DNA of 63,364 nucleotides, filler included. It is 4 parts of 4 records of this genome, joined end to end, with 100 filler letters (N's around TTAATTAATTAA, not from the genome) between each part and the next. Parts side by side here need not be neighbours in the genome. Positions count along the whole stretch, not along the records: positions 13,367 to 34,939 come from SRR20825019_1411; 3 more parts are not named here. One strand, given 5' to 3'. The notes under the pieces were generated by a model. The model saw only the letters and a list, made by a program, of their open reading frames with translations, was not told the DNA's origin and did no database searches. Made by a program: the position numbers and the translations under genes. This document shows positions 2,821-35,039 of this stretch, one piece after another (position 1 is the first letter of the stretch; every line of letters begins with the position of its first letter).

Positions 2821-2899
2821 ATTTTTTTTTGATTAAGTGTATCAATTAGATAAAACAATCTATAATATGAATAAATTAAAGGCAAGTTAAATAAGATTT

Positions 2900-6304: not shown

Positions 6305-6311
6305 AAAATTA

Positions 6312-9309: not shown

Positions 9310-9321
9310 AATAATTTTATT

Positions 9322-11244: not shown

Positions 11245-11256
11245 TTAATCTTATTA

Positions 11257-12172: not shown

Positions 12173-12173
12173 G

Positions 12174-12656
12174 TTATTTATATTTGTAATCTAATTTTAA
12201 TTTACTATCTATTTGTTGTTCCCAAATATCACCATTTTTTAAAAGTTTTTCTTTGTTATATAGTAATTCTTGATGAGTATATGTTGCAAATTCAAGATTT
12301 GGACCTTCAACTATTGCATCAACTGGACATGCTTCTTGGCACAAACCACAATAAATGCATTTAGTCATGTCTATATCATATTTAGTAGTTTTTCTTGCTC
12401 CATTTTCATTTTCTTCTGATTCTATATATATTGCTTGAGCTGGACATACAGCCTCGCATAACTTACAAGCTATACATCTCTCTTCACCGCTTGGATATCT
12501 TCTAAGAGCATGTTCACCTTTAAATCTAGGATTAATTTTACTTTTAACATAAGGATAATTAATAGTAACTTTAGGTTTAAAAAAATATTTTAAAGTCAGT
12601 AGCATTCCTTTTAATATTTCATATAAGGTAAATGATTTGATAAAATTAAAAATCAT
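12174..12656 (-). CDS. nuoI: NADH-quinone oxidoreductase subunit I
   Basis: Two 4Fe-4S motifs: [12 protein letters not shown] and [12 protein letters not shown]. Confidence 0.97.
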
Positions 12657-12662
12657 ATTTTT

Positions 12663-13266
12663 CTATGTAATTATATTAGTCTTTAAAAATAAATATGAAA
12701 TAATAACAACCCAAAGCAAAGTAAAAGGCAAGAATATCTTCCATCCGAGCCTCATTAGTTGATCATATCTAAATCTAGGTGTTGTAGCTCTTATCCATAA
12801 AAAACAGAATAATATCATATATATCTTAGATATAAACCAAAATATTGGAGGCATAAAATCTAAACAGTCTAAATTAAATGGAGGTAAATATCCACCTAAA
12901 AAAAATATGGTTGTTATTGCTGAAACTAGTATCATATTTGCATATTCTGCCAAGAAAAATAATGCAAAACTCATTGAAGAATATTCAACATTATATCCAG
13001 CAACTAGTTCTGCTTCAGCTTCAGGGAGATCAAATGGATGACGGTTAGTTTCTGCTAGAACCGATATAAAAAATACTATGCCAAGTGGAATTAACATTAT
13101 TTCTAGCCATAAAGGTCTATATTTTGATGATTCAACAATTTCTGATAGATTTAAACTTCCAGATATTAATAAAATACATATAACTATAATACCCATAGAA
13201 ATTTCATAAGAAATCATTTGTGCTGAAGATCTTATAGCTCCTAAAAATGCATATTTAGAATTACTT
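12663..13266 (-). CDS. nuoH: NADH-quinone oxidoreductase subunit H, 5'-truncated at contig edge
   Basis: [21 protein letters not shown]...[21 protein letters not shown]...PRFRYDQLM; the frame is open to the gap. Confidence 0.95.
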
Positions 13267-13366
13267 NNNNNNNNNNNNNNNNNNNNNNNNNNNNNNNNNN
13301 NNNNNNNNNNTTAATTAATTAANNNNNNNNNNNNNNNNNNNNNNNNNNNNNNNNNNNNNNNNNNNN
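13267..13366. other. Artificial contig spacer (N44-TTAATTAATTAA-N44)
   Basis: Six-frame-stop linker inside N runs; base composition changes abruptly across it. Confidence 0.98.
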
Positions 13367-14071: not shown

Positions 14072-14215
14072 CGGGCTTATTATTTTTTTCGTTTTACCTT
14101 TCCGTTTTTTCGCTTTGTTCGTTTTTAGGAAAACCTTTGTAAATCTGTTAGCGTCTACTTATAAGTAAAAACCGAGATTTTCAGTGAATCGGTCATTCCG
14201 GAGGACGTACTTACA

Positions 14216-15793
14216 ATGAAGATCGGTATCCCCAGGGAGATTTTCGAGGATGAACGACGGGTAGCGGCAACGCCGCCCTCGGTGCATAAGCTGATAGGCC
14301 TTGGCTATGAGGTGATGGTCGAAGCCGGTGCGGGTGAGGCCGCGAATTACACGGACGACGCCTACGAAAAAGTGGGCGCTAACATTGCGGCGGACACCAA
14401 ATCGCTTTGGCAGGACGCAGATTTTATCCTCAAGGTTCGCGCGCCGATGAAAAACCCTTCGCTCAAGAAACACGAAGTGGATCTGATGAAGGAAGGGGCG
14501 TTCCTGGTCAGCTACCTGTGGCCAGCGCAGAATCCCGAGCTGCTGGAGAAACTGGCGGCCAAAAAGATTACTTCCTTCGCCATCGATAGCCTGCCCCGCA
14601 TCAGTCGTGCCCAGAAGATGGACGCCTTGAGCGCCATGGCCAATATTGCCGGCTACCGCGCGGTGATTGAGGCGGCCAATAACTTCGGGCGGTTCTTTAC
14701 CGGCCAGGTGACGGCGGCTGGCAAGGTACCACCGGCGAAGATCATGGTGATCGGGGCCGGCGTCGCTGGCCTCGCTGCAATCGGCGCCGCAAACAGCATG
14801 GGCGCCATTGTGCGGGCGTTTGATACCCGTCTGGAAGTGAAAGAACAGGTTGAAAGCATGGGCGCCGAGTTCCTGGTGCTGGATTTCGACGACGAGGACG
14901 GCAGCGGTGGCGGCGGCTACGCCAAGCAGATGAGCGACGAGTTCATCAAGGCGGAGATGGCGCTGTTCGCGGAACAGGCCGAAGAGGTGGATATCATCAT
15001 CACCACTGCCCTGATTCCCGGCAAGCCTGCGCCCAAGCTGATCACCGCCGATATGGTGAAATCCATGAAACCCGGCAGTGTGATTGTCGATCTGGCGTCG
15101 GAACGCGGGGGCAACTGCGAGCTGACGGAGCCCGGCAAGGTCGCTCACCATCATGGCGTAACGCTGATTGGCTACACCGATCTGCCCAGCCGTATGGCCA
15201 AGGTGGCCAGCGATCTCTATGCCACTAACCTGGTACACCTGATCACTGAACTGACACCAGAGAAAGACGGCCAGCCCCAGGTCAACATGGAAGACGATGT
15301 GATCCGTGGCCTGACGGTGGTGCGGGAGAACGACGTTACCTGGCCACCACCTCAACCGGAAGCGCCGGTCAGCCCCAAGCCGGCGCCCGGCACTGAAGAA
15401 CCCACGGCTGCCGACAAGGAGGCCGCGAGGCAAGACGCCAAACGCCGCAGCCAGTTTGGCAAGGGCGCGCTGCTGCTGGTCACGGCCCTGGCGCTCTACG
15501 GGGTTGGTGCCCATGCGCCGGAAAGCTTCCTGCAGCACTTCACGGTGTTTGTCCTGTCCTGCTTTATCGGCTGGCAGGTTATCTGGAACGTGACGCCGTC
15601 CCTGCATACGCCTCTGATGAGCGTGACCAACGCCATCAGCGGCATCATTGTGATCGGTGCCATTCTCCACCTGGCCCAGGCGGAGAATCTGGCCGTTGGC
15701 ATCATGGCCTTTTTCGCGGTGCTGATTGCCAGCATCAACGTGGGGGGCGGCTTCCGGGTCACCCATCGCATGCTCAAAATGTTTCGCAAGTAG
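14216..15793 (+). CDS. pntA: NAD(P) transhydrogenase subunit alpha
   Basis: [51 protein letters not shown]. Confidence 0.97.
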
Positions 15794-15805
15794 GAGGCGC
15801 CCGAT

Positions 15806-17197
15806 ATGAGCACAGGATTGGTGAGCGTGGCCTACGTGGTCGCAAGTATCTGTTTTATCCTCAGCCTGGGTGGCCTTAGCCATCAGGAATCCGCCCGGCG
15901 CGGGAACCTTTATGGTGTCGCCGGCATCATCATCGCTGTTGGCGCCACCCTGGCCAGCGTGGACGGTGGTGTTATCGCGATCGTGATTGCGGTGCTGCTG
16001 GGCGCCGGTATTGGTATCCCCATCGCCAACAAGGTGGAAATGACCCAGATGCCGCAACTGGTTGCCTTGCTGCACAGTTTTGTGGGCCTGGCGGCGGTAT
16101 TGGTCGGTTTCTCAGGCTATATCGAGCCCCTGGTAGCCACCATGGGTGCCGAACACACCATCAAGCTGGTGGAAGTGTTTGTCGGTATCTTTATCGGCGC
16201 CGTGACCTTCACCGGGTCGCTGGTGGCCTGCGGCAAACTGGATGGCCGCATCGACAGCAAAGCCCTGACCCTGCCGGGCCGACACCTGATGAACCTGGTG
16301 GCCATCATTGCCTGCGTATTGCTGGGTGCCTGGTTCCTCGGTACCGACAGCATGGCGCTGGGGCTGATTTCCCTTGTCATCATGACGGTCATCGCCTCGG
16401 TGCTCGGCATTCACCTGATCATGGCCATCGGTGGTGCCGACATGCCGGTGGTGGTGTCCATGCTCAACAGCTACTCCGGTTGGGCGGCGGCCTCTATCGG
16501 GTTCATGCTGGGTAATGACCTGCTGATTGTGGTGGGTGCCCTGGTAGGCAGCAGCGGTGCCATCCTCAGCTACATCATGTGCAAGGCTATGAACCGGTCG
16601 TTTATCAGCGTCATCCTGGGCGGCTTCGGCCAGACCAGCAGCAGCTCAAGCGCGGCCGATACTGACCAGTCTGTCTATGAGTCCTCCGCGGATGATGTGT
16701 GCGAGGAACTGCGCAATGCCGATTCAGTGATTATCGTGCCGGGTTACGGAATGGCTGTGGCGCAGGCCCAGAACGGCGTCAGCGAAATGACGAAAATCCT
16801 GCGGGACCGTGGCGTCAACGTGCGTTTCGGCATTCACCCTGTGGCGGGTCGCCTGCCCGGACACATGAACGTGTTGCTCGCCGAGGCCCATGTGCCCTAT
16901 GACATCGTGCTGGAAATGGACGAAATCAACGACGATTTCCCAAGCACCGATGTGGTGCTGGTTATCGGTGCCAACGACACCGTAAACCCGGCCGCCGCCG
17001 AAGACCCGGGCAGCCCGATTGCCGGTATGCCGGTGCTTGAGGTGTGGAAAGCGCGCCAGGTGGTTGTCCTCAAGCGGGGCATGGCCACGGGTTATTCAGG
17101 CGTGGAAAACCCGCTGTTCTTCAAAGACAACACCCGCATGCTGTTTGGCGATGCCAAGGAAAGCATCGACAAGCTGGTTGGTGGGTTAAGGGGCTGA
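15806..17197 (+). CDS. pntB: NAD(P) transhydrogenase subunit beta
   Basis: [45 protein letters not shown]. Confidence 0.97.
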
Positions 17198-18337
17198 TTC
17201 TTCAGCCCCGGATTCCTTCTCAAAAAACCGCTCAATCTGCCGGGACTGGCTCTGGCCGTCCCGGTAGCCCAGCTCAATCAAATCGCGACAGAAGCGTTTG
17301 TCGAACAGCAGGAAGCTGGCGAGATTGGCGCTGGAAAAAGGCGCGTTGTCCGAAGCACCGGTCAACCGTCGCAACACCAGCGGCATGGCGTCAATGTATT
17401 TCATGGCGATTTCGTTGATGGGCTCGGAAGGGGAAATTTCCAGAATATCCACCGGGTTCAGGTCCAGCCCCGACTCCTTCAGTTTTTTCTCGGGGATCAG
17501 TTCCAGCAACTGGTTGATCAGCCGTGAGCGATCGATGTCGTAATCCAGCGTATCCAGGAACATGCCGTTGAACACGTGGGCCAGTACCTGGGTCAGCGTT
17601 GGCATACCGGGTTTTTCCGGGCGCCTGGACGGGCACATCGCGTTGGCACTAACCCCGATCACCAGCACCTTGCGTGCACCCAGTCGCAATGCCGGACTGA
17701 TGTGGGCCATCTGGCGGGTCACGCCATCACCAAAGTACTCGCGGTTGATCTTCACCGGCGCAAACAGAGTGGGAATAGCCGCAGACGCCATGATGTGGTC
17801 CACTGCCAACTCTGTGCGGGTGCCACCACGCTGTCCGATCGACCAGCCTTGCAGCCCTTCAGCCCCTTCAAAGAAACACACATTCTGGCCAGTCGCGTAA
17901 CCGCAGGCATTCAGGCCCACAGCGTCGATGTGGCCCTCCTGAATGGTTTGCCGAATGCTCTGCAGGTCGATCTCCCGCTCCAGCAATTCCCGCAGTGGCG
18001 AATTATCCAGAAAGGAAACCGGCCCGCTCTCAATGGGGCGACTGATCATCTTGCGGGCGATGGCGCTGAAGCTGCGCATCAGGCTAAAGGTATCCGCCCG
18101 GAATACCCGGTCCATGGTCAGTTCCGACCAGACTTTATCGAGATGATCAATACTGTGGCGAAACAGCCCCCGGTTACCGGCAAGGGCCATGGCATTGATC
18201 GCCCCGGCCGAGGTACCGATAATGACATTGAACGGGTGGTTCCAGTCCGGATACATGTCAGCGATAGCGCGAAGCACGCCGACCTGATACGCCGCCCGCG
18301 CGCCACCGCCGGTGAGAATGACACCGTTCTTTGTCAT
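17186..18337 (-). CDS. Patatin-like phospholipase
   Basis: [16 protein letters not shown] nucleophile, ASAAIP..F, DG motif. Start reassigned to MTKNGVIL at 18337; 3' end overlaps pntB by 12 nt. Confidence 0.9.
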
Positions 18338-18368
18338 GAAACCATTCCGTTTTGAACAGTGCCTCGCA

Positions 18369-18911
18369 TCAGGCCTGTTTGATCTTATGCCGACGCCGGC
18401 CGGCAAACGGATTGTTAATGCTGGAATCCTTGCCCTGCAACTTGGCCTCGGGGTGGTTCTTCGCCATCAGTTCCTTGACCTTGGGAATGTGGTCCTTCGG
18501 GGCATCCACCATGATCAGGTACTTCCCTGCCTCAATATCATGATGGAACGGCTCGATACGGTAGTTTTCACTCTGGATACCACCAAAGCCACCAACCCAG
18601 GCGCCCGCTACCACCACAAAGATAAACAGGGCGATCCAGGCGGCCGCCGGCATGTTCAGAACTTCCAGCAAGGCCAACGGTACAAGGAAGGCCAGCGCCA
18701 GCACAAAGCCGGCTATGGCGCCGCGCTCCACGTACCTGGGCAGATCCGTTCGGTCCAGGATGGACGCGGTGTGTAACTGGTGAGTGTAGAGGCCGGCCTC
18801 GTCCTTGCTGACAATGTGGAAGCGCCAGTCAGTGACGTCGTGCTCGTGAAGGTCGTCGGAGATTTCTTTTGCACTGTCAATCGAAGATACCAGATAGAAT
18901 AAACGTATCAT
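18369..18911 (-). CDS. Hypothetical membrane protein with two TM helices
   Basis: Start MIRLFYLV preceded by AGGAG; central hydrophobic hairpin; C-terminal IEAGKYLIMVD. Confidence 0.7.
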   Translation of the reverse strand: MIRLFYLVSSIDSAKEISDDLHEHDVTDWRFHIVSKDEAGLYTHQLHTASILDRTDLPRYVERGAIAGFVLALAFLVPLALLEVLNMPAAAWIALFIFVVVAGAWVGGFGGIQSENYRIEPFHHDIEAGKYLIMVDAPKDHIPKVKELMAKNHPEAKLQGKDSSINNPFAGRRRHKIKQA

Positions 18912-21787: not shown

Positions 21788-21804
21788 CTGTGGAGTAGGC
21801 AGGA

Positions 21805-23130
21805 CTACGCGTTTTCGCGCTGGGGTGAGCGCCTTGCCTGACCACCGTTGCCATTCTGGCTACGGCCGCCACTGCGACCACCCGGCTTGCCGCCAAAACT
21901 ACGGCCATTTCCGCCGGGCTTACCATTGCCACCACCGTTACCGCCGCGACCACGGGCCCGGCTGGGGTCTGCCTTGGCTTTTGGCTTCAATGGCAGGTTG
22001 TTCTGGGGCTCGAAGCCTTCAACAGACTTGCGCGGCAACTGCTTCTTGATCAGCCTCTCAATCCCGGCAAGCATCTTGCCCTCATCGGCGCTAACCAGCG
22101 ACAGTGCATGGCCGCTTTCACCGGCACGACCAGTACGGCCAATGCGGTGAACGTAGTCTTCCGGCACGTTCGGCAATTCGAAGTTCACCACCTGGGGCAG
22201 CTGTTTGATGTCCAGGCCACGGGCTGCGATGTCGGTTGCGACCAGTACACGCACTTCACCCTGTTTGAAATCAGCCAGGGCGCGGGTACGAGCACCCTGT
22301 GACTTGTTGCCATGGATCGCAGCAGCGGTAATACCGTCACGCTCCAGCTTCTGGGTCAGGCGGTTGGCGCCGTGTTTGGTACGGGTGAACACCAGCACCT
22401 GCTCCCAGCCATTGTCTCGCACGAGCTTGCTCAGCAAGGCGGTTTTCTGGCTCTGATCAACCGGATAGACCGACTGCTTGATGCTTTCCGCAGCAGTGTT
22501 TCGGGCTGCCACTTCCACCTGCACCGGGTTATCCAGAAGGCCTTCGGCCAGGGTGCGGATTTCATTGGAGAAGGTGGCGGAGAACAACAGGTTCTGGCGC
22601 TTGGCGGGCAACAGCGCAAGAATCTTGCGGATGTCACGGATAAAGCCCATGTCCAGCATGCGGTCGGCTTCGTCCAGCACCAGGATTTCCACTTCGTTGA
22701 AGCGAACTGCATTCTGCTGATACAGGTCCATCAGACGGCCGGGTGTGGCCACCAGCACGTCCAGGCCCTTACGCAGCTTCATCATCTGCGGATTGATTTT
22801 TACGCCACCAAACACCACGGCGGACTTGGTCGGCATGTATCGGCTGTAAAGGGCCACACTGTCGTGTACCTGGGCCGCCAGCTCGCGGGTAGGAGCCAGG
22901 ATCAGTACACGCGGGCCTTTGCCAGTGCGGGGGGTTTCCGCCAGGCGCTGCAGCAATGGCAGGGTGAACCCTGCGGTTTTACCGGTACCCGTCTGGGCAG
23001 CCGCCATCACGTCCCTGCCGGATAAAACGGCGGGAATGGCCTTGGCCTGGATGGGTGATGGGGTTTCGTAACCCTGGTCGGCAGTGGCACGGACCAGTTG
23101 CTCGGACAAACCGAGTGAAGAAAAACTCAT
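21805..23130 (-). CDS. rhlE: DEAD-box ATP-dependent RNA helicase (RhlE-like)
   Basis: [47 protein letters not shown] typical of RhlE; Gly/Arg-rich tail. Confidence 0.88.
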
Positions 23131-23407
23131 AGTGGATCAACTCTTGATTAGTCTGCCTCCACGAACACCGATCTCGGCGAATGCGGGCAGATGCCATGAA
23201 GATTCATGGAATAAAAGACGACTACGGCCACACACCGTTAACGGGGTGACGTCCTCTGACAGGTCGTATGGATGGTTCGCACGGGCTTGAAGCCTTGAAT
23301 TGCGGAAATCCCTAGAGGCAGGATGCTGGGCACACTAACAGAGTGGTTCGGGAATAGCTATAAGGAACTTTACCGGGCAGGGATCTTTGATGTGGTCCCC
23401 CGTCGGG

Positions 23408-23437
23408 GATAACCCTGCCAGGCCAGGCAGGGTTATC
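23408..23437 (-). terminator. Strong hairpin downstream of the DUF1329 gene
   Basis: GATAACCCTGCC-N6-GGCAGGGTTATC, a perfect 12-bp stem; no clear U-tract. Confidence 0.55.
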
Positions 23438-23453
23438 GGTCCGCCATTAACGA

Positions 23454-24815
23454 TTAACGCACGCCGTCCCGGCGTAACGCAGCCGGCGTGTATTCACGGG
23501 AGCGACGCTCGGTACCATACTGGTAAGGCTCGTCTTCCTCGTTGGTCAGCCCCATCACCAGATAGCGCCCTGACAACAGGTCATACAGGGTTTCAAAGGC
23601 ATAGGCCGGAATGTTGGCATCGTATATCTGCATCGCGTGCGCTTCGGCAACACGCCACAGGTTGCCACGACCATCGTAGTGATCCACCGCTGCAATCTGC
23701 CAGGTATCCTCATCAATGTAGAAGTCCCGTTTGCCGTAGACATGCCGCTCACCATCCTTGAGTGTCGCTGTTACATGCCATACCCGGTGCAGCTCATAAC
23801 GCGTGAGGCCCTGGTCGACATGGCCGGGCTTTATGATGTCGTCATAGCTCAGGCTCTCGTCGGTCAGGCGATAGGAATTGTACGGAATGTACAGCTCTTT
23901 CTTGCCCTTGAGTTCCCAGTTGTAACGGTCTGGCGCGCCATTGTAGAGGTCCAGGTTGTCAGACGTGCGCTGACCATCTGCGGCGGTACCCGGCCCATCG
24001 TAGGCCACATTGGGAGCACGGCGAACACGACGCTGCCCGGAGTTGTACAACCATGCGCGGCGGGGCTCCTTAACCTGGTTGATGGTCTCGTGCACCAGCA
24101 GTACGTTGCCGGCGAGGCGAGACGGAGCGGTGATGGCCTGCTTGAAATAGAACATCACATTGGGATCTTCGCTTGGATCGAAATCCTCCAGCGCCACCCG
24201 CTCGGTAAACGATTCGGTGAACCTGACCGGGCTGAAATCGCCATTTGGCTGCGGTGTTACCTGTGCCACATTGCGGGTAAAGGAACCGCCGCGGTAGCGG
24301 GTGATATGGTTGAAAATCACCTCAAGGCCATTTTGGGGGATCGGAAACGGGGTCGCTGTTTTGTAGTTCTTGAGACCGTTCCCGCTTTCCACCAACTCCA
24401 CTTCGGTGGCATTGGCCTTGGTTTTCTCCAGCACGTCGGCAGGATAGGTCGCCGTTCTCCGGGTCTGGTAGACCGGCATAAAATAATTGTCGTACGTCTT
24501 GATCATCGCAATCTGGCCGGGCGTCAGGTTGTCCGCGTACTGGTCAACGTTGCTCTGATCGATACGAAACAGCTCTTTGTCATTGGGAAACGGATCCACG
24601 TATCGGCCGTCGCCCTGGTAGGCACCCGGTGCCTGAAGCAGCCCCCCGTCCCAGGCAGGAATTTCATCGCCATTACCGGACTTCTCGGCGCCCATCGGCG
24701 TGAGCGTATCTCCCAGTTTGGCGGCCTCCTGGGCCGACACTGCTGCGCCGGCTGATGCGGAATACAGCATCGAGCACGCCAATGCACTGTAAAGCAGGTT
24801 TTTTCGGTTAATCAT
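23454..24815 (-). CDS. DUF1329 family exported protein (LolA-like fold)
   Basis: Signal peptide; LG.TLTPMGAEK.GN..EIPAWDGG, PFPIP.NG.E, RRAWLYNSGQRRVRRAP..AYD, YIDEDTW. Confidence 0.88.
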   Translation of the reverse strand: MINRKNLLYSALACSMLYSASAGAAVSAQEAAKLGDTLTPMGAEKSGNGDEIPAWDGGLLQAPGAYQGDGRYVDPFPNDKELFRIDQSNVDQYADNLTPGQIAMIKTYDNYFMPVYQTRRTATYPADVLEKTKANATEVELVESGNGLKNYKTATPFPIPQNGLEVIFNHITRYRGGSFTRNVAQVTPQPNGDFSPVRFTESFTERVALEDFDPSEDPNVMFYFKQAITAPSRLAGNVLLVHETINQVKEPRRAWLYNSGQRRVRRAPNVAYDGPGTAADGQRTSDNLDLYNGAPDRYNWELKGKKELYIPYNSYRLTDESLSYDDIIKPGHVDQGLTRYELHRVWHVTATLKDGERHVYGKRDFYIDEDTWQIAAVDHYDGRGNLWRVAEAHAMQIYDANIPAYAFETLYDLLSGRYLVMGLTNEEDEPYQYGTERRSREYTPAALRRDGVR

Positions 24816-24844
24816 GGATTACTCCTCGGTTTTCAGACAATGGT

Positions 24845-26734
24845 TCAAAATGAATAGGACACTGAGGCCGACACGAAATCCCGGTCATTGATGACGTTGT
24901 AATCACCCCCGAAATAGTTGGTGTAGCTCAGATTGGCTTTGTAGGCGTTTTGATAGGTGGCTTCGACGGCCAGGCCCAGTGACTTGTTGCCTTCCTGGAA
25001 GTTGCCACCAGGATCTGGTGCGTAGCCCTTCACGTCGTGAGAGAAAAAGAGCCGGGGGCGCAAGTTGACGCCAGCGACGGCATCCGGATAGTCCCAGACA
25101 AACAGCGTGCGATAGCCCCAGGAGAAGGACGTGGTAAACCCACCACCTCCACAGTTGCTGGGGTTGATGTTCAAACGCGGGTCACTGTCTGTGCCCTGGC
25201 TGCAGTAGTCACCGGTAAAGTTGTCACCCTCCAGCGGCACCGGCCCCACACCGTAGATGCCCGATCGCCCGTAGCGGGCTTCCGAGGTGCTGGGCAGATC
25301 GTGGATATAGGTGGCACCAACCTCACCAACAATGATGAAACGGGCGGCGCCCATTACCCGGTCAATGAAGTGAATGAATGTGGCCTGGGCCTGGGAAACG
25401 TTGTAACGGTCGTAGCCATCAACAGCCTTACCGGCATAGTTGAAATTGGGATCCTTCTCACGCTGGCGTTGCTCCAGCTTGCTCACTACCTGTCCATCCG
25501 GACCACGCTGTTGCAAGCCTCCGTAGATCAGCTCAAACGTGTTCCACTGGATGGGAAGGTTTGGCCGGAAGCTGTATTCCGCCCCCAGCGAAGTGCCCGT
25601 TGGAAGGGTGGTGTTGATACTGATGCCATAGAGATCAATGTCTTCCGGATACTCGATGAAATAGCTGGGAAACCTGGAGTTGGGCAGGTTGGGGTCGCTT
25701 TTCTGGTTTGCCGATGGGTCCGAGGGGTTGTTGACCACACCACTGATGTACGGAAGACGGCTGTGATAACGGGTGTAGTAGAACCCCAGCTCGGCCCCCA
25801 GGTCGGTCAGATACCAACGCAACGCGGCACCGAACTGATCCTTGTCCCCGGGCTCGCGATCGCCCAGGCGCGGAGACACGAATCCCTCTTCCAGCGCCTG
25901 GGAGTCAGGCACCTGGCCCGCCAGTAATACCGGGCCACAGCCATCGGCCGCCACGTCGGCGGAGGAAAAATAGGTGCCACAATCGTCGATCCTGAAGCTT
26001 TCCCAGTCGGTCTGAACAAACGCCTCCATGGTGATTTCAGGCGTCAGGCCAACCGACGTATACAACATCTCCACTGGTAACAATACGTCTTTCAGCTCCG
26101 CGCCGGGAGCACGAAACGCGGGAACGTCGATCGGATTGACCGCGTTGATACCGCCCAGGATGAACGTGCTTTCGCCCCAGTTCACCACCTGACGGCCGTA
26201 ACGGATCGACACCGGCGTATCGCCGAAGTACCAGTCCGTAAACACGTAGGCGTCGAGAAGATCCACACCGGAGGCGTTATCTTTGGCCTCATCATTCAAT
26301 TCACGTCGTTGGCCGACCGGGTCCTTGGCGCGACGGTTATCCTTCAGTTCGTGGTCGTAATAGTAAGTGCCTCGCACCAGCGCCCCGACCCGCGTCAGCG
26401 TGTCACTGTCGGGGGTGTAGTCCAGGAACAGTTCACTACGGCCACGCAGGATCTGGGAATATGGCTCGTTCTTTTCAAAGTTCAGGTTGCCGTCGTCGAA
26501 GTTGTTGGACGAGGCGCCCGTGTTACTGAATGCGAATTCCGGGCCCAGGTTGCCCTGGGAGATCAGATCTTTGTCCTGATCTTCCAACCGATAGGCAATC
26601 CCCGCCGTCAGGGTCGTTGAGAGCGAGGCGTCGATCTCGTAGATGTCAAAATCGAATGCCATCGCCGGGGCAGTGGATACGATTGCGCCGATAGCCAGCG
26701 CCAGGCGTTTACGGTCTCGGTTTTTTGTTGTCAT
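24845..26734 (-). CDS. DUF1302 family outer-membrane beta-barrel protein
   Basis: Signal peptide; N.DDGNLNF, LLDAYV, GRQVVNWGESTF..GGIN..NPID....RAPGAELK; terminal DRDFVSASVSYSF. Start reassigned to MTTKNR. Confidence 0.88.
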   Translation of the reverse strand: MTTKNRDRKRLALAIGAIVSTAPAMAFDFDIYEIDASLSTTLTAGIAYRLEDQDKDLISQGNLGPEFAFSNTGASSNNFDDGNLNFEKNEPYSQILRGRSELFLDYTPDSDTLTRVGALVRGTYYYDHELKDNRRAKDPVGQRRELNDEAKDNASGVDLLDAYVFTDWYFGDTPVSIRYGRQVVNWGESTFILGGINAVNPIDVPAFRAPGAELKDVLLPVEMLYTSVGLTPEITMEAFVQTDWESFRIDDCGTYFSSADVAADGCGPVLLAGQVPDSQALEEGFVSPRLGDREPGDKDQFGAALRWYLTDLGAELGFYYTRYHSRLPYISGVVNNPSDPSANQKSDPNLPNSRFPSYFIEYPEDIDLYGISINTTLPTGTSLGAEYSFRPNLPIQWNTFELIYGGLQQRGPDGQVVSKLEQRQREKDPNFNYAGKAVDGYDRYNVSQAQATFIHFIDRVMGAARFIIVGEVGATYIHDLPSTSEARYGRSGIYGVGPVPLEGDNFTGDYCSQGTDSDPRLNINPSNCGGGGFTTSFSWGYRTLFVWDYPDAVAGVNLRPRLFFSHDVKGYAPDPGGNFQEGNKSLGLAVEATYQNAYKANLSYTNYFGGDYNVINDRDFVSASVSYSF

Positions 26735-26864
26735 TGGTCTGTAGCTCCAGTTTTTCAGGCAAAGCTTCCCCATTGATGGAGAGAATCGCCATCGACATAC
26801 ACGTGTTTATCGGGAACGGGCGCTCCGGGATCTCCGAAGCGCTGGTTGTCTGGCCGTTGGGTTT

Positions 26865-29840
26865 CTAGATCAGGCCGCCACCAATCAGGCCACCATCACC
26901 TCCATCACCCCCACCATCTCCGCCGCCGTCCGGCTCACTGCCTGGATCGGTGTTGCCCTCGGCGGAGCAGTCCGTACCTGAGGTATCGGCATCCTCTACG
27001 ACACAGGGGTTGCTGACAGAAACGGTGCCATCACTGAACAGCTCCAGCATCTGCGCGATCATCTCGTCGAAGACCGCACGTGAAGAAAAGGCATCCGCCG
27101 CTTTCTGACCGGCAGACACGGGGTTGCCATGCGACCCTTCCAGATAGCGGGTTATGGCTGGGAGGCCACTTGCCAGCGGCGTTGACTCAGCGCCCATACC
27201 CGCAGCCAGGGGATCCGTACCCGCCAGAGGTGCGCGCTCACTACTGATCACAAATCCGGTTTCCGGAACCGTGGTTTCAAGGGGCCCCATGGCGTAAAGC
27301 TGATCATCCGCGGCATTGGGAATCGTGTCGTCAGTTGGGCGCTCAGGGTCATCATCAACACCAACGATTTCAGTCAGCAACGTGTTGGTGTTCTGATAAA
27401 AGCCGGCATAGGCGACAGGGTCTGCCGAATCCAGCTGCGACTGGAACACATTGAAGTAGATGTTGAGTTCCGTACGTCCCTGCGCCAGCACGCCGTCAGA
27501 GGCGGCGTCCAGCACGGGAAGAAGCTGTGGTGCCAGTGACTGCGAGTTTTCGAACAGACGTGTGAACTGACCGCCGGTGTTCAGCAGATTCGAGGCCAGA
27601 ACCGGGCTGAGATTGGAGTTGCCCGCAGCACTCGCTGCATTGTTAACCGGTGGGAAGGCCGCGCCACCCATACCACTGAGCGAATGGCTCATGAAATAGA
27701 CCCGGCTCGGATCAATGCTCAGGCCCTGGGCACAATCGCCGGCGGCCTGACACGCGTTGATGGCGTCCTCGATCGCCTGCAACGAGGCGTTCACGTTAAG
27801 CAGGTCGAGGGTGCCCTGGCGCATGTTGTCACGGGTGTTGGCGTAGTTAGTGAAATTCAGGTACAGACTTCCCGATTCGGGCTCCTGCAGTTCACCCGCC
27901 GGTACCGGATTAAGATCCGCGTCAGCGGCGAAGCCAAAGTGACGCTCGACGGCGTCCGCCGAAGCACCATCCTGAGTGGTGATGGGATTAAGACCAACCA
28001 CGCCCTCTCCGAAAATACCGTGCAGCGGCTGATCGATACCGATGGTGACGAAGCAGTCAAAGGTATTGCCAGGGTCTGCGCAGGACAACCCAGCGGCTGT
28101 CGCCAGAGGGAGGATCGCCGAACGGTCGGTGGTCACGGCATGCTGATAGATGATCACCGGAAAACCATTTGCCGGGGTCTGCGGGGCAATCAAGGCCTGG
28201 TTGGTGTCGGGCGCGGCAACTACAATGGGAACCGTTGTTTCACTGGACTTTTCAGCAAACGGGAAGCGGTAGGTCACGCGATCCGAGGGCGCCTGATCGA
28301 GTGACTCCTCGGCACTGAAGTCCGCCGGGAGCCAACTGGCCGAGCGCAGGGCTGACCCATCCGTCGCCTCCGGCACGCCCTGAAAATACGGCAGGGTAAT
28401 CTCGCCCTCATAGACATGGATATTAAGAGGGGTGCCCTGAACTTCCTGAGCCAACGCCGGATTTATCTCACCACCGTCGCGCTGGTTGAACATTCTTACT
28501 GTTCGCGGCTTCGGGGCATCAATAAGGTTGTCAGCGGCGGTTGCAAGCGCCTGGGCGTCAGCCTCAGTATCGTGGACTGTATCGACGGCCATTGCTGTTG
28601 CGGCCTGCAAAGCATAGGCGACCCTGCGGTCCGCCTGATCATTGCTGACAAGGTCCTGATATTGAACGACCATGCCAGCGTCCCGGGCATCACTGAGCAG
28701 GCCGGCGAGCTCGGCGTCGTAGAGGCGGAAATTGGTGTCCGTCAGCGTTGTATGGATTTCATCGTTGATGTTCTGCTGTTCCGCCGTCGCGGCCCCCTCC
28801 AGCGGCTGTTGAGTCAGGTTGTAGAATCCGGAGATCAACTGCTGGAGCCCTTCCTGTCGGGCAGCTATACCCAGGCTGTTGCGGAAGAACGTCACCGGGG
28901 CTGTATTTGCCAGCAGCACGTCGTCTACCGCCGTTGTGGTGATCGTTGTGGAAAACACAACGTCATCGAACTTCTTTGAGAATCCAGCGATGGAAAACGC
29001 CTGCTTGAACTCAAAATAGTCGGAAGCGAGTCGGCGGGCAGGTAACAACGCCTCGCGGAATGGCTCGAACGCAACATTGGAAAGCACCGCTTCCGGGTCC
29101 GCCACCGACTGGTAGGTCGGAGCGCCAACGAGCGGGTCGCCGTTGGTGTCTACAATGTCGTCGGTGATGGCCAGGGCGTACCGGGTTTTCTCAGCCAGTG
29201 GCTTGACCGGCAGAATCCGGATCATATTGTTCTGGCCACCATCGATATCCAGCAGCTCAACCCGAAGTCTGTCCTCAACCAGGGCATCGAAAATCGCATC
29301 GGCTTCGGCGGTATTACCGCTTTCCTCAAGCGCCAGTGCCCGCCGGTACTGAATCGCCGATGAAATTCCGGCGACCTCTCCGGAGGTTTGACGGAGGCTA
29401 TCGCCACCGGCATATTCCAGGGGAATCAGGAACACATTCTGATCCGGGTTGGGGACAACTTCGCCCTCCACGGAGATAAAGTCACGTGCATCAAGGGTCT
29501 GCTGGCTGTCCAGGCTGCCACTGATCTTGATATCAATGGGTGCCAGTACTGAATTTCCATCGAGAAATCCAATGCCCGTGGTCACCGGGTTGGCAGGATC
29601 GCTGCCGTTCAGCATGGTGCCGTCGTCAACCTCACTGAGATAGAAAAGGGAATCGCTTGGAATCGGGAATTGGGTGGTCAACGGGTCAAATAATGGGTGA
29701 GTTCCCCGCTCCACGGCCGGATTGGTAATGTCGTAGTCTGGGTCCGCATTCTTTGTAGTCTGGCTGCTGCTTTCAAAACAACCCGTCAGGCTGACCGACA
29801 AAATGACCATCGACATCAGTCGCGTTTGGCGCATGAACAT
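26865..29840 (-). CDS. Large lipoprotein, extracellular lipase-like (Pla-1/cef/VolA type) alpha/beta hydrolase
   Basis: Lipobox LTGC; N-terminal PLFDP...FPIPSD...LDG.S...PI; PVIIYQH.VT, IGIDQPLHG, TRDNMRQ..LDLL, SHSLS elbow, DDTIPN, EGSHG. Confidence 0.78.
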   Translation of the reverse strand: MFMRQTRLMSMVILSVSLTGCFESSSQTTKNADPDYDITNPAVERGTHPLFDPLTTQFPIPSDSLFYLSEVDDGTMLNGSDPANPVTTGIGFLDGNSVLAPIDIKISGSLDSQQTLDARDFISVEGEVVPNPDQNVFLIPLEYAGGDSLRQTSGEVAGISSAIQYRRALALEESGNTAEADAIFDALVEDRLRVELLDIDGGQNNMIRILPVKPLAEKTRYALAITDDIVDTNGDPLVGAPTYQSVADPEAVLSNVAFEPFREALLPARRLASDYFEFKQAFSIAGFSKKFDDVVFSTTITTTAVDDVLLANTAPVTFFRNSLGIAARQEGLQQLISGFYNLTQQPLEGAATAEQQNINDEIHTTLTDTNFRLYDAELAGLLSDARDAGMVVQYQDLVSNDQADRRVAYALQAATAMAVDTVHDTEADAQALATAADNLIDAPKPRTVRMFNQRDGGEINPALAQEVQGTPLNIHVYEGEITLPYFQGVPEATDGSALRSASWLPADFSAEESLDQAPSDRVTYRFPFAEKSSETTVPIVVAAPDTNQALIAPQTPANGFPVIIYQHAVTTDRSAILPLATAAGLSCADPGNTFDCFVTIGIDQPLHGIFGEGVVGLNPITTQDGASADAVERHFGFAADADLNPVPAGELQEPESGSLYLNFTNYANTRDNMRQGTLDLLNVNASLQAIEDAINACQAAGDCAQGLSIDPSRVYFMSHSLSGMGGAAFPPVNNAASAAGNSNLSPVLASNLLNTGGQFTRLFENSQSLAPQLLPVLDAASDGVLAQGRTELNIYFNVFQSQLDSADPVAYAGFYQNTNTLLTEIVGVDDDPERPTDDTIPNAADDQLYAMGPLETTVPETGFVISSERAPLAGTDPLAAGMGAESTPLASGLPAITRYLEGSHGNPVSAGQKAADAFSSRAVFDEMIAQMLELFSDGTVSVSNPCVVEDADTSGTDCSAEGNTDPGSEPDGGGDGGGDGGDGGLIGGGLI

Positions 29841-29898
29841 ACTTGTTTACCTCTGTACGTTTTTTTGTAGTTCGAGACTCGTCCTGTGTCTTTCGGCC

Positions 29899-29927
29899 TA
29901 ACACGGAAGTCTAATTGCGGTGGTTCC
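29899..29927 (-). promoter_or_regulatory. Putative ECF sigma promoter for the lipase arm
   Basis: Minus strand GGAACC-accgcaattagacttc(16)-CGTGTTA, about 60 nt upstream of the lipase start. Confidence 0.7.
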
Positions 29928-30117
29928 AAAAAAATTTTCCCGAATAGACGAGAAATCGCAAAAGGAAGGGCTAACTGGTTCTTGTAGCGAGAAATTTGTC
30001 TCGAACAAAAGGCAATAATGATGGTATGTTCAGAATCTGACATCCGAACACCTACAAGAATGGCCTGAGGACGGGGCACCCGCCAAACCGTGCCAACCAC
30101 AGACCGAGGGAATCAGA

Positions 30118-30702
30118 TTGGCTTTGCTCCCATTTCGTTCGTCGTCGTCAAAGCGATTTGACCGGCTGATTCTGCCTTACATGAAAGGCATGTATATTTT
30201 CGCCTACCGCCTGACTGGCCAGAAACAGGACGCAGAGGATCTGGTGCAGGATGTCGTGGTCAAGATGTACCCCCGGCTGGACGAACTGGAAAACGTGCAG
30301 CAACCCCAGCCATGGCTCAACCGTGTGTTGTACCGGCACTTTGTAGACCTCACCCGAAAACAATCCAGCCAAAGAGAAATCAGCGTCAGTACACTGGTCG
30401 CTGCGGAGAGCCAGACCGCCTTCATAGAATCCCTCGGCGAGGCAAGCCCGGATGCGTCCGCCGGTATCGACCAAACGCGCATTGGCGAAACCGTCAAGCG
30501 GTTACTGAATACCCTGCCACCAGACCAACGAACCCTGTTACTGCTTCACGACGCGGATGGCTGGCGCCAGGAGGACATTGCAACGGTTCTGGATGTGCCT
30601 GTCGGTACGATAAAATCACGCCTGCATCGCAGCAGAGCGTTTATGCGGGAACGGTTGAAAAAACAAATGGAACCTTTCGAAAAGCAACAACGTGAAGGGT
30701 GA
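30118..30702 (+). CDS. ECF-type RNA polymerase sigma factor
   Basis: AYRLTG...DAEDLVQD, WL.RV.YR.FVD, IATVLDVPVGTIKSRLHR; TTG start preceded by GAGG. Confidence 0.93.
   Translation: MALLPFRSSSSKRFDRLILPYMKGMYIFAYRLTGQKQDAEDLVQDVVVKMYPRLDELENVQQPQPWLNRVLYRHFVDLTRKQSSQREISVSTLVAAESQTAFIESLGEASPDASAGIDQTRIGETVKRLLNTLPPDQRTLLLLHDADGWRQEDIATVLDVPVGTIKSRLHRSRAFMRERLKKQMEPFEKQQREG
30669..30696 (+). promoter_or_regulatory. Putative internal ECF promoter for the anti-sigma gene
   Basis: GGAACC-tttcgaaaagcaacaa(16)-CGTGAA within the last codons of the sigma gene, about 20 nt before the anti-sigma ATG. Confidence 0.65.
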
Positions 30703-30715
30703 AGAGGTGAATGCC

Positions 30716-31402
30716 ATGACGTGTCGTCAGTTCCATCAGGAGGTCGACAGCCTGGTTCGCGGCGATCTTCCGCTGCATGAACAGGAAGCCCTCCAAGCTC
30801 ACGCATCGACGTGTGCCAGTTGCTCAGAACTTTGGGAGGATGAACAACGCCTGCAAAAAGGCATCATGGCCCAGACCGTTCCAGAGCCCGACGACGATTT
30901 CGAATCCCGCGTTCGTGCAATGGCACTCGCTGGCGAGACACCTCGGAATTCCACGTTACGCAAAACGTCACTCTGGGCTTCATCAATTGCCGCCGTGCTG
31001 GCACTCGGTATCTTCATCGGTATGCAGGTCGGCCCGGCAGATACGGGATTGCCCGAAGACATCGCAGATGCAGATGCTACCGGGCAGACAGCAACAGAAA
31101 CCGTTGCTGAACCCGAAAGTGGAGCGGAACTGAAAACCGTCAGGCTGGCGTTCAATTCCCGCAAGGCGATGGACAACGTCACCCTGACCCTGGAACTGCC
31201 GCCCAACGCAGAACTGGCACCCTTCCCGGGGCGCCAGACCATCAGCTGGACGGTGGATCTCAAGCAAGGCGATAACGTACTGGCGTTGCCCATCAACGTA
31301 CTGTTCCCTGGTTCCGGCAAACTGGTTGCGCACCTGGACGATGGAACCCGGCGCAAAACGTTCAGCACCGCCATTCCAGGAAACACGGAGCCTTCATCAT
31401 GA
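30716..31402 (+). CDS. Zinc-binding (zf-HC2/ZAS) transmembrane anti-sigma factor
   Basis: MTC...HASTCASC (HxxxCxxC), one TM (WASSIAAVLALGIFIG), beta-rich periplasmic C-domain; GAGG precedes ATG at 30716. Confidence 0.85.
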   Translation: MTCRQFHQEVDSLVRGDLPLHEQEALQAHASTCASCSELWEDEQRLQKGIMAQTVPEPDDDFESRVRAMALAGETPRNSTLRKTSLWASSIAAVLALGIFIGMQVGPADTGLPEDIADADATGQTATETVAEPESGAELKTVRLAFNSRKAMDNVTLTLELPPNAELAPFPGRQTISWTVDLKQGDNVLALPINVLFPGSGKLVAHLDDGTRRKTFSTAIPGNTEPSS

Positions 31403-31863
31403 AAAGACATACCCATATACGCTGGCTTGCTCCGGCCATGCTCGGCCTTCTGCTTGCTACACCGGCTCTGTCCTGGGCTCAGGACGATCTTGATGTGACC
31501 ATGAGAATGGTCGCGGACGATCAGGAGCTGGACGATTCCTTTGTGCAACAACTTGAGCTTCCGGAGTCCGTGGACGCGCCCGCCGGCGCAAACGGGTTCG
31601 GTGATATGCAGACGGATTCCGGCGACTTCGCTTCCGATACCCGGGAAGACATGCTGGATATCGAGAGCACTCTCTCCGAACAGTCACGGGAGTCTCGTGA
31701 CGCGCTCGGCATCGAACTGCCTGGCGAGATCATCCAAGACGAACCAGAACTGGACCTGCCGGGCATCGAAGACCCTGGACTGGACCTGCCAGGCACCGGC
31801 GATACCGATCTGGACCTGTTAAACGACAGTGGCCTGAATCTGGAGGAAACCGGACAGCAGTAG
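31399..31863 (+). CDS. Exported, highly acidic hypothetical protein
   Basis: Signal peptide ending SWA; LDVTMRMV; D/E-rich with LDLPG repeats; ATGA overlap with the anti-sigma gene. Confidence 0.75.
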   Translation: MKRHTHIRWLAPAMLGLLLATPALSWAQDDLDVTMRMVADDQELDDSFVQQLELPESVDAPAGANGFGDMQTDSGDFASDTREDMLDIESTLSEQSRESRDALGIELPGEIIQDEPELDLPGIEDPGLDLPGTGDTDLDLLNDSGLNLEETGQQ

Positions 31864-31921
31864 ATTAGATACAGACGTCACACCTGATTCCTTCAGGACT
31901 GGCGCTCGCCCGTCCAATGGC

Positions 31922-31930
31922 TGTTATACT
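31922..31930 (+). promoter_or_regulatory. Possible extended -10 sigma70 element upstream of the TPR/beta-barrel gene
   Basis: TGtTATACT about 35 nt upstream of the TTG start. Confidence 0.35.
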
Positions 31931-31965
31931 CTGAGTCCGAGTTCAGACTATTCCGGAGAGAGTAT

Positions 31966-33282
31966 TTGCGCCGTCTTCTGACCATCGCACTGGTGTTGTG
32001 TCTCGCGCTGTCAACCGCCCATGCTCAGGAGCATACGACCGAGGCTAAGACGCTCTTCCGTGCGGGTATCCAGGCGTTTAACGCCGGTGACCTGGATGAA
32101 GCTCGCCGCTTACTTGAGTCCGCCGTCTCGAAGGGGTTGAGCTCCCGCTCACTCAATTACAACCTGGGCGTTGTCTATTACAAACTCGGGCTTTACGAGG
32201 AGGCGGAGCAAACCTTCCGGACCCTTATCCCCACCCGTCAGAAAGCGCTTGCCTACTACAACATCGGGTTGACCGCCCTGGCCCGTGAAAATCAGGACGC
32301 CGCAACACAAGCGTTCCAGAACGTGCTTGCGTCCGATCCTGACGACAACCTGATATCGCTCGCCACCCGTCAACTTGAACGCCTCGATCCAACGATGCAT
32401 GCTGCCTCACCCAAAAAACGTTGGGCTGGCCTGGTTTCCATCGGGGGTGGCTATGAAGACAACGTTGCGCTGTTCCCGGATACCGCCCCCAGAAAGCTCG
32501 ACAGCGGCTTTGTGGAAACTCTGGCGGCTGCCTCCTATTACCTCTATGGCGACTCTTCGGCGGGACTGCGTTCGGACATCAAGTTCTATTCGCGTCAGTA
32601 CCCTTCCGAGCACACGTTTGACCTGCAGGTGATTCAGGCGGGTGCAAAATGGGTTCAGAAAACCGCACCGGGAGTGATCAGCGTAGGCCTTGGCGGCGAC
32701 TATATATGGCGGGATCGGCGATCAAGGGAACGTCGCGCTCGCCTGATGGCCGGCATAACCACCCTCGACTGCCCAGGCCCCGGCGCGCGATGCCTGGTTA
32801 GAGCAGAGGCCACCCAGATTTTTCCGTTACCTGGATTCGATGCCTATCGGGGCCAGATGTACCGGCTTGATGCCCATTACCGTCTCCGGCCCGGGAACTG
32901 GACAGCGGAACTCAAATACCGGGCTGACTACAATGACCGGGACAATCTGGATACCGGAGAGGAGTTCTTCAGTGTGTCGCCCGAGCGACATGGCCTTGAT
33001 GCAGGCATTGAGTACGACCTGACTGACCAACTGAGTGTTGAAGCCGGGGCGGGCTTTCGCTTCAGTTACTATCGTACGCCACACCAACTGATTGTTCCCG
33101 AGGGCCGACAAACGATACGTCGTGAAGACAAGCGTCATACACTGTCCGTTGGCACCACGTATCGTTTCTCTCGTCGAACATCTCTCAGTCTGGATCTGGA
33201 CCGTATCGACAACAACAGCAACATCGATCGCTACAGCTACGATCGCCACACCGTCACCGCCAGCCTGGCCGTCGGATTCTGA
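31966..33282 (+). CDS. TPR plus outer-membrane beta-barrel protein (Slam/DUF560-like architecture)
   Basis: Signal peptide; TPRs (YNLGVVYYKLG.YEEA; YYNIGLTAL); GGGYEDNV barrel start; NNSNIDRYSYDR and terminal aromatic (LAVGF). Confidence 0.75.
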   Translation: MRRLLTIALVLCLALSTAHAQEHTTEAKTLFRAGIQAFNAGDLDEARRLLESAVSKGLSSRSLNYNLGVVYYKLGLYEEAEQTFRTLIPTRQKALAYYNIGLTALARENQDAATQAFQNVLASDPDDNLISLATRQLERLDPTMHAASPKKRWAGLVSIGGGYEDNVALFPDTAPRKLDSGFVETLAAASYYLYGDSSAGLRSDIKFYSRQYPSEHTFDLQVIQAGAKWVQKTAPGVISVGLGGDYIWRDRRSRERRARLMAGITTLDCPGPGARCLVRAEATQIFPLPGFDAYRGQMYRLDAHYRLRPGNWTAELKYRADYNDRDNLDTGEEFFSVSPERHGLDAGIEYDLTDQLSVEAGAGFRFSYYRTPHQLIVPEGRQTIRREDKRHTLSVGTTYRFSRRTSLSLDLDRIDNNSNIDRYSYDRHTVTASLAVGF

Positions 33283-33325
33283 TACCAACCCACGTGCACA
33301 CGTGACTGCCGGGCATCAGTAAACG

Positions 33326-34939: not shown

Positions 34940-35039
34940 NNNNNNNNNNNNNNNNNNNNNNNNNNNNNNNNNNNNNNNNNNNNTTAATTAATTAANNNNN
35001 NNNNNNNNNNNNNNNNNNNNNNNNNNNNNNNNNNNNNNN
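34940..35039. other. Artificial contig spacer
   Basis: N44-TTAATTAATTAA-N44. Confidence 0.98.

Follow-up and report, generated by a model that had tools for sequence, protein, structure and literature searches.

In Vibrio cholerae, the lipoprotein lipase VolA (VCA0863) shares an operon with a homologue of the outer-membrane channel FadL (VCA0862), and the two genes are cotranscribed in Vibrio. VolA is known to be surface-exposed, also in E. coli K-12 and without a dedicated exporter, and the literature states that its route to the cell surface is unknown. In Pseudomonas putida, an adjacent DUF1302/DUF1329 gene pair (PP_0765/PP_0766), with homologues in Shewanella, Kangiella, and other Pseudomonas, is predicted to encode a barrel-carrier complex. 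Mutants in the pair do not grow on Tween 20 or butyl stearate; in the published account the pair has a linked LuxR-type regulator and the esterase step is called missing. DUF1302 has been described as forming a barrel of 18 strands that is predicted to bind DUF1329. Slam proteins (Neisseria Slam1 and Slam2, Xenorhabdus NilB), the outer-membrane proteins of type XI secretion, combine, according to a review, tetratricopeptide repeats (TPRs) with a predicted 14-stranded barrel. Here, we describe a seven-gene locus from a 63,364-nt stretch of DNA (hereafter, the window) in which relatives of these proteins are encoded in two divergent arms. The left arm (minus strand) encodes a lipase, a DUF1302 protein and a DUF1329 protein, and the right arm (plus strand) encodes an extracytoplasmic function (ECF) sigma factor, a membrane anti-sigma factor, a small acidic exported protein and a Slam-like barrel. 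On balance, we consider it probable, from gene content, conserved linkage and shared promoter-like motifs, that the locus is an operon for the scavenging of lipid esters under the control of its own, dedicated ECF sigma cassette.

All seven open reading frames (ORFs) were found exactly where the original prediction had placed them, on either side of a 277-bp gap (29841-30117), and their family assignments were confirmed, apart from a direct DUF560 match for the barrel. They lie entirely inside the segment of the window at 13367-34939, which comparison with named public records places in Marinobacter; the lipase is 98% identical to that of an M. salarius record and 95% identical to that of M. 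algicola DG893. A search with the barrel protein found it in 31 of 41 related genomes, and in the fetched neighbourhoods the gene order was always sigma, anti-sigma, small exported protein, barrel. These loci are of two types. In type A, the barrel is 41-99% identical to that of the window and the cassette was divergent from lipase-DUF1302-DUF1329 in 8/8 evaluable loci, a ninth having been left out because its contig was too short. In type B, the barrel is 31-37% and the sigma factor 50-56% identical to the window's, and the neighbourhood is fixed, comprising genes for a class A penicillin-binding protein, a small TPR protein and a DUF4382 protein, the cassette, sometimes an alpha/beta hydrolase gene, and an aminotransferase gene. 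Type B cassettes were divergent from the DUF4382 gene in 21 of 22 evaluable loci, and 20 of 21 DUF4382 products start with a lipobox. Marinobacter has, then, two paralogous cassettes, one by the lipase operon and one by the DUF4382 gene, and both face a divergent lipoprotein gene. The arrangement is far from accidental, recurring in 23 of 71 evaluable barrel loci and in 25 of 38 evaluable lipase loci. Of the 80 barrel loci, 23 adjoined the lipase arm, 44 adjoined DUF4382 and 4 adjoined neither, and 9 were too short to tell; of the 42 lipase loci, 25 had the cassette next to them, 13 had none within at least 3.2 kb upstream and 4 could not be judged. The lipase arm adjoined the cassette in 23 of 25 evaluable type-A-like loci, and the divergent arrangement was kept from 98% down to 51% lipase identity, Halospina included.

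The lipase operon and the anti-sigma, small-protein and barrel genes each lie behind GGAAC-N17-CGT, the signature of the cassette family. The first copy in the window, P_lip (GGAACC-N17-CGT; 29903-29927, minus strand), points toward the lipase gene ~60 nt before its start, and transcription from it would be expected to begin near 29896. The second, P_int (GGAACC-N17-CGT; 30669-30693, plus strand), lies within the sigma gene, at its 3' end, and points toward the anti-sigma, small-protein and barrel genes. GGAACC-N17-CGT was present on the lipase strand of the shared gap in 10/10 type A loci (window included), and the core motif pointed toward the DUF4382 gene in 17 of 18 type B loci; toward the sigma gene, the gaps of both types held a single match, by chance. 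The extended type A motif occurred exactly once per genome, at the lipase gene, in 5/5 genomes (0 in reversed controls). P_int held its position in 27 of 29 loci, covering both paralogues and one other genus, and was always built from GAA and CGT codons, although in ten local genes these account for 49% of the Glu codons and 28% of the Arg codons; this fixed choice despite lower local usage argues for selection on DNA. In other genera, 9 loci had a called sigma gene; GGAACCTTTT-N13-CGT occurred at the end of that gene or where it meets the anti-sigma gene in 8 of them and just upstream of it in 6 (two of the six represent one genus), the latter position being what is usual for an autoregulated ECF promoter. 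In ECF classification practice, a motif that recurs before the operon of an ECF sigma factor is the accepted way to read the promoter of that sigma. Since the motif recurs before the sigma operon in other genera, we take it to be the cognate promoter of the cassette family, and its presence also before the lipase and DUF4382 genes argues for direct control by the sigma factor. The proposal that the sigma factor couples both arms is thus supported to the extent that a cassette-specific promoter-like motif stands both at the sigma gene and before the lipase gene.

The motif also persisted away from the cassette, 74-89 nt upstream of the lipase gene in 10 of 14 lipase loci without an adjacent cassette. 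Five genomes with an unlinked lipase each had a single cassette, in DUF4382 context. Since the unlinked lipase carries the motif, one cassette may serve both lipase and DUF4382 targets in these genomes, and the type A copy may have arisen later, as a duplicate with a dedicated role. Four unlinked lipase operons (L105, L110, L111, and L113), which have no ECF-type motif, have a common AT-rich upstream element (TTGGAATAC..TATATTATGCGATA), which suggests a switch to another regulator.

The sigma gene itself may have a housekeeping-type promoter: by eye, TGGTATGTT (30022-30030, plus strand) is a possible extended -10 element, and a TGnTA-type element is conserved before the sigma gene in type A and type B loci, although a consensus sigma-70 scan of the intergenic region reported nothing. 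A terminator-like hairpin with a T-run lies at 29936-29955 (minus strand), just upstream of the -35 element of P_lip, and type A loci share a conserved A/T run adjoining GGAAC; this run could act as an UP-like element or terminate antisense reads. RNA-library contigs (four runs of one study) spanned all seven genes, with higher contig depth over the cassette, and one contig ran from 30055 to 32683, from sigma through barrel. No contig bridged 29952-29968 and one on the lipase side ended at 29891, near the expected start; because RNA contigs give no starts, strands or levels, this is a weak hint.

The lipase gene (26865-29840, minus strand) heads the left arm and encodes a 991-aa lipoprotein with the lipobox LTGC, apparently a distant relative of VolA/Pla-1. 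As the original prediction had anticipated, profile searches with Lipase_bact_N, DUF1302, and DUF1329 all scored above cut-off, the lipase giving 29.3 bits against PF12262 (cut-off 22.3). Its LTGC is followed by F, and in orthologues L(T/S/A)GC is followed by L or F, the non-Asp residue at +2 being an outer-membrane lipoprotein signal. The candidate catalytic residues of a serine hydrolase, HS(L/M)SGMGG, D845, and H904, were invariant or nearly so in 36 lipase orthologues. A PDB sequence search with the lipase gave 0 matches, and an AlphaFold2 model from 22 sequences (mean pLDDT 46.8) was too low in confidence to judge the fold. The DUF1302 gene (24845-26773, minus strand; 642 aa) encodes an outer-membrane barrel protein matching PF06980 (E = 1.7e-169, 565.7 bits), and the last gene of the operon (23454-24815, minus strand; 453 aa) encodes a LolA-like DUF1329 protein with a Sec signal peptide, matching PF07044 (E = 1.9e-153, 511.6 bits) and LolA_like (39.7 bits). 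Both the DUF1302 and DUF1329 Pfam matches are full-length and above cut-off, and the two genes lie 29 nt apart on one strand.

DUF1302 and then DUF1329 followed the lipase gene in all 39 evaluable lipase loci (of 42). Among 19 distant VolA-like relatives from other sampled genera (open frames of 670-855 aa, with flanks viewed over 1.5 kb), DUF1302 adjoined the lipase gene on the same strand in 7. This conserved linkage and the published fitness data support a lipid-ester role for the three genes, and, given the cotranscription of VolA with fadL, the simplest reading would be that substrates are hydrolysed at the outer membrane and the products then taken up. The likeness to VolA has limits: the window's lipase is ~200 residues longer and far below the family cut-off, its channel would be DUF1302 with DUF1329 rather than FadL, and an ECF-type promoter-like motif precedes its operon. 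Likewise, the P. putida pair has a LuxR-type regulator and no linked esterase, whereas the window's operon is headed by a lipase and would be controlled by an ECF sigma factor.

Under this scheme, the sigma factor would be made from its housekeeping-type promoter and held by the membrane anti-sigma factor until an envelope or substrate signal frees it. Free sigma would then drive the lipase operon from P_lip and the anti-sigma, small-protein and barrel genes from P_int, which together would yield output and negative feedback. The lipoprotein lipase would hydrolyse esters or lysolipids at the outer membrane, and the DUF1302 barrel and the LolA-like DUF1329 protein would move the hydrophobic products inward, in the role that FadL has for VolA in Vibrio. 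The divergent Slam-family barrel would act in the envelope on a co-induced protein, either the neighbouring lipoprotein or the small acidic protein.

Several points weigh against this scheme. Because the locus sets share genomes and stem from related species, the counts given above describe conservation and not independent trials. Two type-A-like cassettes (L144 and L160) lack the lipase arm, and the motif is missing from 4 of the 14 unlinked lipase loci. The core motif is short, with 0.96 matches expected and 4 observed in the window; another ECF sigma factor with a similar motif could read P_lip, and P_int lies in coding sequence, where protein constraint could explain part of its conservation. 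The lipase matches TIGR03502 (VolA/Pla-1) with E = 4.8e-47 and 160.6 bits in three stretches and does not reach the curated cut-off of 383.9, which by NCBI's rule makes it, judged on its sequence, a relative of VolA/Pla-1 and not a member; its nucleophile elbow is xHSxS and not GxSxG. The lipid role originally proposed for this arm is supported by linkage and published fitness data. Promoter use, inducing signal, lipase activity, and lipase localisation are all computational inferences. Finally, Price et al. interpret DUF1302/DUF1329 as serving export of a cell-wall component, not import.

At the extreme, the two arms could be neighbours and nothing else, the lipase-gene motif being read by another ECF sigma factor or not being a promoter. 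The core motif is of a common ECF type as well as short, lipase operons keep it in genomes without an adjacent cassette, and the Marinobacter loci are phylogenetically related, all of which would fit. However, the same motif occupies two fixed cassette positions across distant genera, the divergent arrangement survives over the range of lipase identity given above, and the paralogous cassette repeats the same design with a different target; we therefore regard mere neighbourhood as highly improbable. Alternatively, the locus could be a module for envelope stress and outer-membrane lipid homeostasis and not a scavenger, in which the ECF sigma factor responds to membrane damage, the lipase removes lipids that are out of place, and DUF1302/DUF1329 transport lipid or a wall component either outward or from one membrane to the other. 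An ECF sigma factor paired with a ZAS membrane anti-sigma factor is typical of stress systems, the type B cassette has a conserved envelope neighbourhood with the class A penicillin-binding protein gene beside it, and Price et al., who saw pleiotropic phenotypes, drew their export proposal from cofitness of DUF1302/DUF1329 with a BNR protein and an RND transporter. Yet the P. putida phenotypes are specific to fatty esters, the linkage of DUF1302 with VolA-like lipases across genera and the VolA-FadL precedent fit uptake better, and no BNR or RND gene was found in the contig segment 13367-34939. We consider this alternative unlikely, and lipid-ester scavenging under sigma control remains the reading that we prefer.

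The cassette begins with the sigma gene (30118-30702, plus strand; 194 aa), which has a TTG start behind GAGGGAA. Its product contains, in Pfam, Sigma70_r2 and Sigma70_r4_2 only and scored 80 bits against TIGR02937 (cut-off 42.9). The anti-sigma gene (30716-31402, plus strand) is in an ORF that opens with GTG at 30692; since P_int overlaps this first GTG, the real start is probably the ATG at 30716, behind GAGGTG. The resulting 228-aa form carries HASTCASC (HxxxCxxC) at residues 29-36, a single hydrophobic span and a C-terminal part of ~120 aa. With regions 2 and 4 only in the sigma factor and an HxxxCxxC anti-sigma factor encoded at +1, the pair conforms to the ECF sigma/ZAS class. The predicted zf-HC2 match fell just short at 21.6 bits (cut-off 22.2), but H29, C33, and C36, as well as C3, were invariant across 35 sequences. 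The third gene (31399-31863, plus strand) encodes a 154-aa exported protein with a signal peptide, whose mature part has 37 D+E vs. 4 K+R residues and an isoelectric point of ~4.05. It consists of an N-terminal motif, DDLDVTMRMV...ELPE, and a variable charged tail, and is mostly low-complexity. Across 32 sequences, drawn from the two paralogues and from other genera, the motif was retained and T34 was invariant, and the gene always directly precedes the barrel gene. No Pfam or NCBIfam family matched this protein, and in the ESM Atlas both it and the anti-sigma factor matched unnamed clusters only.

Operons of the rpoE-rseA-rseB type have the order sigma factor, membrane anti-sigma factor, periplasmic protein, as does this cassette. 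The proteins are unrelated by family scans, however, and in the window the fourth gene encodes a barrel and a promoter-like motif lies inside the 3' end of the sigma gene. FecI-FecR-FecA likewise combines an ECF sigma factor, a single-pass anti-sigma factor and an outer-membrane barrel in control of uptake, but differs in that scans of the seven proteins against Pfam and NCBIfam found no TonB-dependent transducer and no FecR domain, the anti-sigma factor being of ZAS type and accompanied by an extra small exported protein. By loose analogy with RseB-RseA or FecA-FecR, the barrel and the small acidic protein could form a device for secretion-coupled or cell-surface signalling and not for lipase export, the small protein being cargo or ligand of the barrel, and the periplasmic domain of the anti-sigma factor reading either the periplasmic level of the small protein or the state of the barrel. 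Many gammaproteobacterial families keep the four-gene order irrespective of what lies next to it, the cassette in other genera seems to be self-contained and to regulate itself, and the small protein, with its motif kept across genera, always occupies the place before the barrel gene that type XI cargo genes often take. Against such a device, the small protein lacks a cargo-like C-terminal barrel and is mostly low-complexity, the anti-sigma factor lacks a FecR-type domain and no TonB-dependent transducer is present, and contact between the proteins of the sigma cassette is hypothetical. A complex prediction made without alignments (barrel 22-438, anti-sigma 120-228, small protein 28-75) scored 0.26 against a mark of 0.34 and weighs neither way. 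We hold this proposal tentatively, as possible though somewhat unlikely; within the preferred scavenging scheme, the small exported protein is an equally good candidate for a partner of the barrel or for a signalling role.

The barrel gene (31966-33282, plus strand) encodes a 438-aa protein with matches to TPR families and weak matches to barrel families. An AlphaFold2 model built from 37 sequences (mean pLDDT 89.5) had helices at 22-140 and 14 long strands at 153-437, with one short additional hairpin, and so predicts the periplasmic TPR and 14-strand barrel architecture of Slam. PF04575 (DUF560/SlipAM) gave no match to the window's barrel at E <= 0.01, its gathering score of 22 bits not being reached. 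However, hhalign of the 37-sequence barrel family with eight DUF560 proteins from the sampled genomes, each matching PF04575 at E <= 2.4e-26, gave a probability of 98.8% (E = 1.3e-16) over 373 columns, and 99.7% (E = 8.2e-26) when two weaker members were added. Among 30 representatives of the barrel family (every fifth rank), 8 matched PF04575 at E <= 0.01 and 4 were above cut-off, and a related out-of-genus barrel scored 20 bits against the cut-off of 22; the family thus borders on DUF560. A Foldseek search of the PDB with the barrel model returned only generic barrels (BcsC best, E = 3.4e-12; FadL, OmpG, and CymA), with no Slam entry among the matches. The Slam likeness claimed originally therefore holds by profile-profile alignment and predicted architecture and not by a direct DUF560 match, and remote homology supports placing the barrel as a divergent member of the Slam/DUF560 (type XI secretion) superfamily. 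As with Slam, a lipoprotein gene lies next door. The differences are that the window's barrel is below the Pfam threshold and embedded in an ECF sigma/anti-sigma operon, that no TonB-dependent receptor or TbpB_B_D cargo is encoded nearby, and that its possible cargo would be a lipase, a DUF4382 protein, or an acidic disordered protein.

Beyond Marinobacter, a barrel-family profile found 893 representatives at E <= 1e-30 among 1.84 billion sequences, and near-full-length barrel matches occurred in 31 of 400 sampled gammaproteobacterial genomes, five more matching the TPR part only. The same gene order recurred among 20 barrel loci from other genera, in which rough calls identified a sigma gene in 9, an anti-sigma gene in 10 and a small-protein gene in 12. 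The neighbours of these cassettes vary, many having no consistent lipoprotein neighbour. The original prediction had counted against itself unrelated divergent neighbours of the cassette in most genomes together with a lipase arm that does not respond to the sigma factor; for the family as a whole this applies by half, the neighbours differing among genera, and for the orthologous cassette (23 of 25 with the lipase arm) it does not. The four-gene cassette is a widespread module and apparently undescribed. Our literature searches on DUF560 with sigma factors, on DUF4382, and on Marinobacter ECF factors, lipases or anti-sigma factors gave no published description and nothing relevant; for an association of DUF560 with a sigma factor operon they returned one unrelated review only. 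In the text and partial supplement of PMC7826278, the 16 places with 'tetratricopeptide' included no ECF group with a ZAS at +1 and a TPR/barrel protein at +3, though the remainder may describe one.

In one out-of-genus locus (L254:5862-9033, plus strand), the barrel homologue is immediately followed by two lipoprotein genes, for an MtrC/MtrF-like multihaem cytochrome and a DUF2202 protein, and in another (L252), a DUF4382 gene lies near the barrel gene. Such neighbours bear on whether the barrel is a dedicated translocon that displays the lipase (type A) or the DUF4382 lipoprotein (type B) in the way that Slam displays TbpB. In its favour, the barrel has remote DUF560 homology and the matching architecture, barrel and lipoprotein genes stand behind the same motif, a divergent lipoprotein gene is found at both paralogous cassettes and other lipoprotein genes occur near the barrel elsewhere (L254, L252, and a 581-aa product in L144), and a surface route for VolA is, as noted, wanting in the literature. 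Published type XI cargo is however reportedly targeted through its C-terminus. The lipase and the small acidic protein had no Pfam match to a TbpB_B_D-type domain, and the conserved hydrolase core of the lipase extends to about residue 935 of 991, so that the ~55 C-terminal residues leave no room for a cargo barrel. A cargo domain common to the lipase and the DUF4382 protein was sought by hhalign and rejected (probability 16%, signal peptide only). VolA is exposed in E. coli K-12, 13 of 38 evaluable lipase loci have no adjacent cassette, and many out-of-genus cassettes lack a consistent lipoprotein neighbour. Accordingly, the earlier claim that the barrel displays the lipase is not upheld, and a dedicated translocon of this kind appears doubtful to us. 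A broader proposal is that the cassette is an ECF-coupled branch of type XI secretion that both switches on and surface-delivers lipoproteins without a TbpB-type cargo domain (VolA-like lipase, DUF4382, perhaps MtrC-like cytochromes), the small protein coupling secretion state to the sigma factor; this is speculative, and we would not expect it to prove right.

Individual loci showed further variation. In L144, the 581-aa lipoprotein gene follows the barrel gene, and in L160 a thiolase-like gene lies upstream and the opposite strand carries a single GGAAC-N16-CGT, possibly a relic. In three Marinobacter loci, L092, L094, and L097, a penicillin-amidase-family (Ntn acylase) gene (L097:6202-8916, minus strand) lies on the sigma strand between cassette and lipase gene, which separates the sigma and lipase genes by ~3 kb; the motif is still present 78-79 nt upstream of the lipase gene. 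In the nearest genome and in one M. salarius record (L034 and L080), the RhlE, lipase, sigma, and barrel genes all appear split or shortened and their neighbours are 98-100% identical (window equivalent 21800-33300), which looks like assembly indels rather than decay.

The window itself joins four segments that look unrelated, 1-13266 (GC 0.24), 13367-34939 (GC 0.58), 35040-56856 (GC 0.35), and 56957-63364 (GC 0.55), by N44-TTAATTAATTAA-N44 linkers at 13267-13366, 34940-35039, and 56857-56956. A drop in GC at ~34,950 with a short MltF was considered as an inserted island and rejected, the position being a contig end joined by such a linker; the MltF-like ORF ending at 34995 and other genes at the joints are cut by contig ends and not biologically truncated. 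On the same contig as the locus and 5 kb from it, a patatin-like phospholipase gene (17186-18406, minus strand) is syntenic in close relatives. Two long ORFs had no Pfam family at E <= 1e-5: 14159-16075 (minus strand; 638 aa), and 997-2820 (minus strand; 607 aa), the latter in the segment of GC 0.24 beside an ankyrin-repeat protein.

The locus bears on three matters. DUF1302/DUF1329 proteins have strong fatty-ester fitness phenotypes in a system whose esterase step was called missing, and here, as well as in 7 of 19 relatives from distant genera, a VolA-like lipase gene adjoins DUF1302. A Slam-family barrel that is apparently co-regulated with a VolA-like lipase is a concrete candidate for the surface route of VolA-type lipases. 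According to a preprint on type XI secretion, DUF560 clusters beyond cluster 1 come mostly from water and soil organisms and have no characterised protein. Since the barrel family carries a sigma/anti-sigma pair and a clear promoter signature, its regulon should be readable from sequence and switchable genetically, and a promoter-like motif inside the 3' end of the sigma gene is in itself an unusual ECF operon design. If the cassette were indeed an ECF-coupled branch of type XI secretion, it would provide VolA-type lipases with a surface route and the environmental DUF560-like clusters with a first function.

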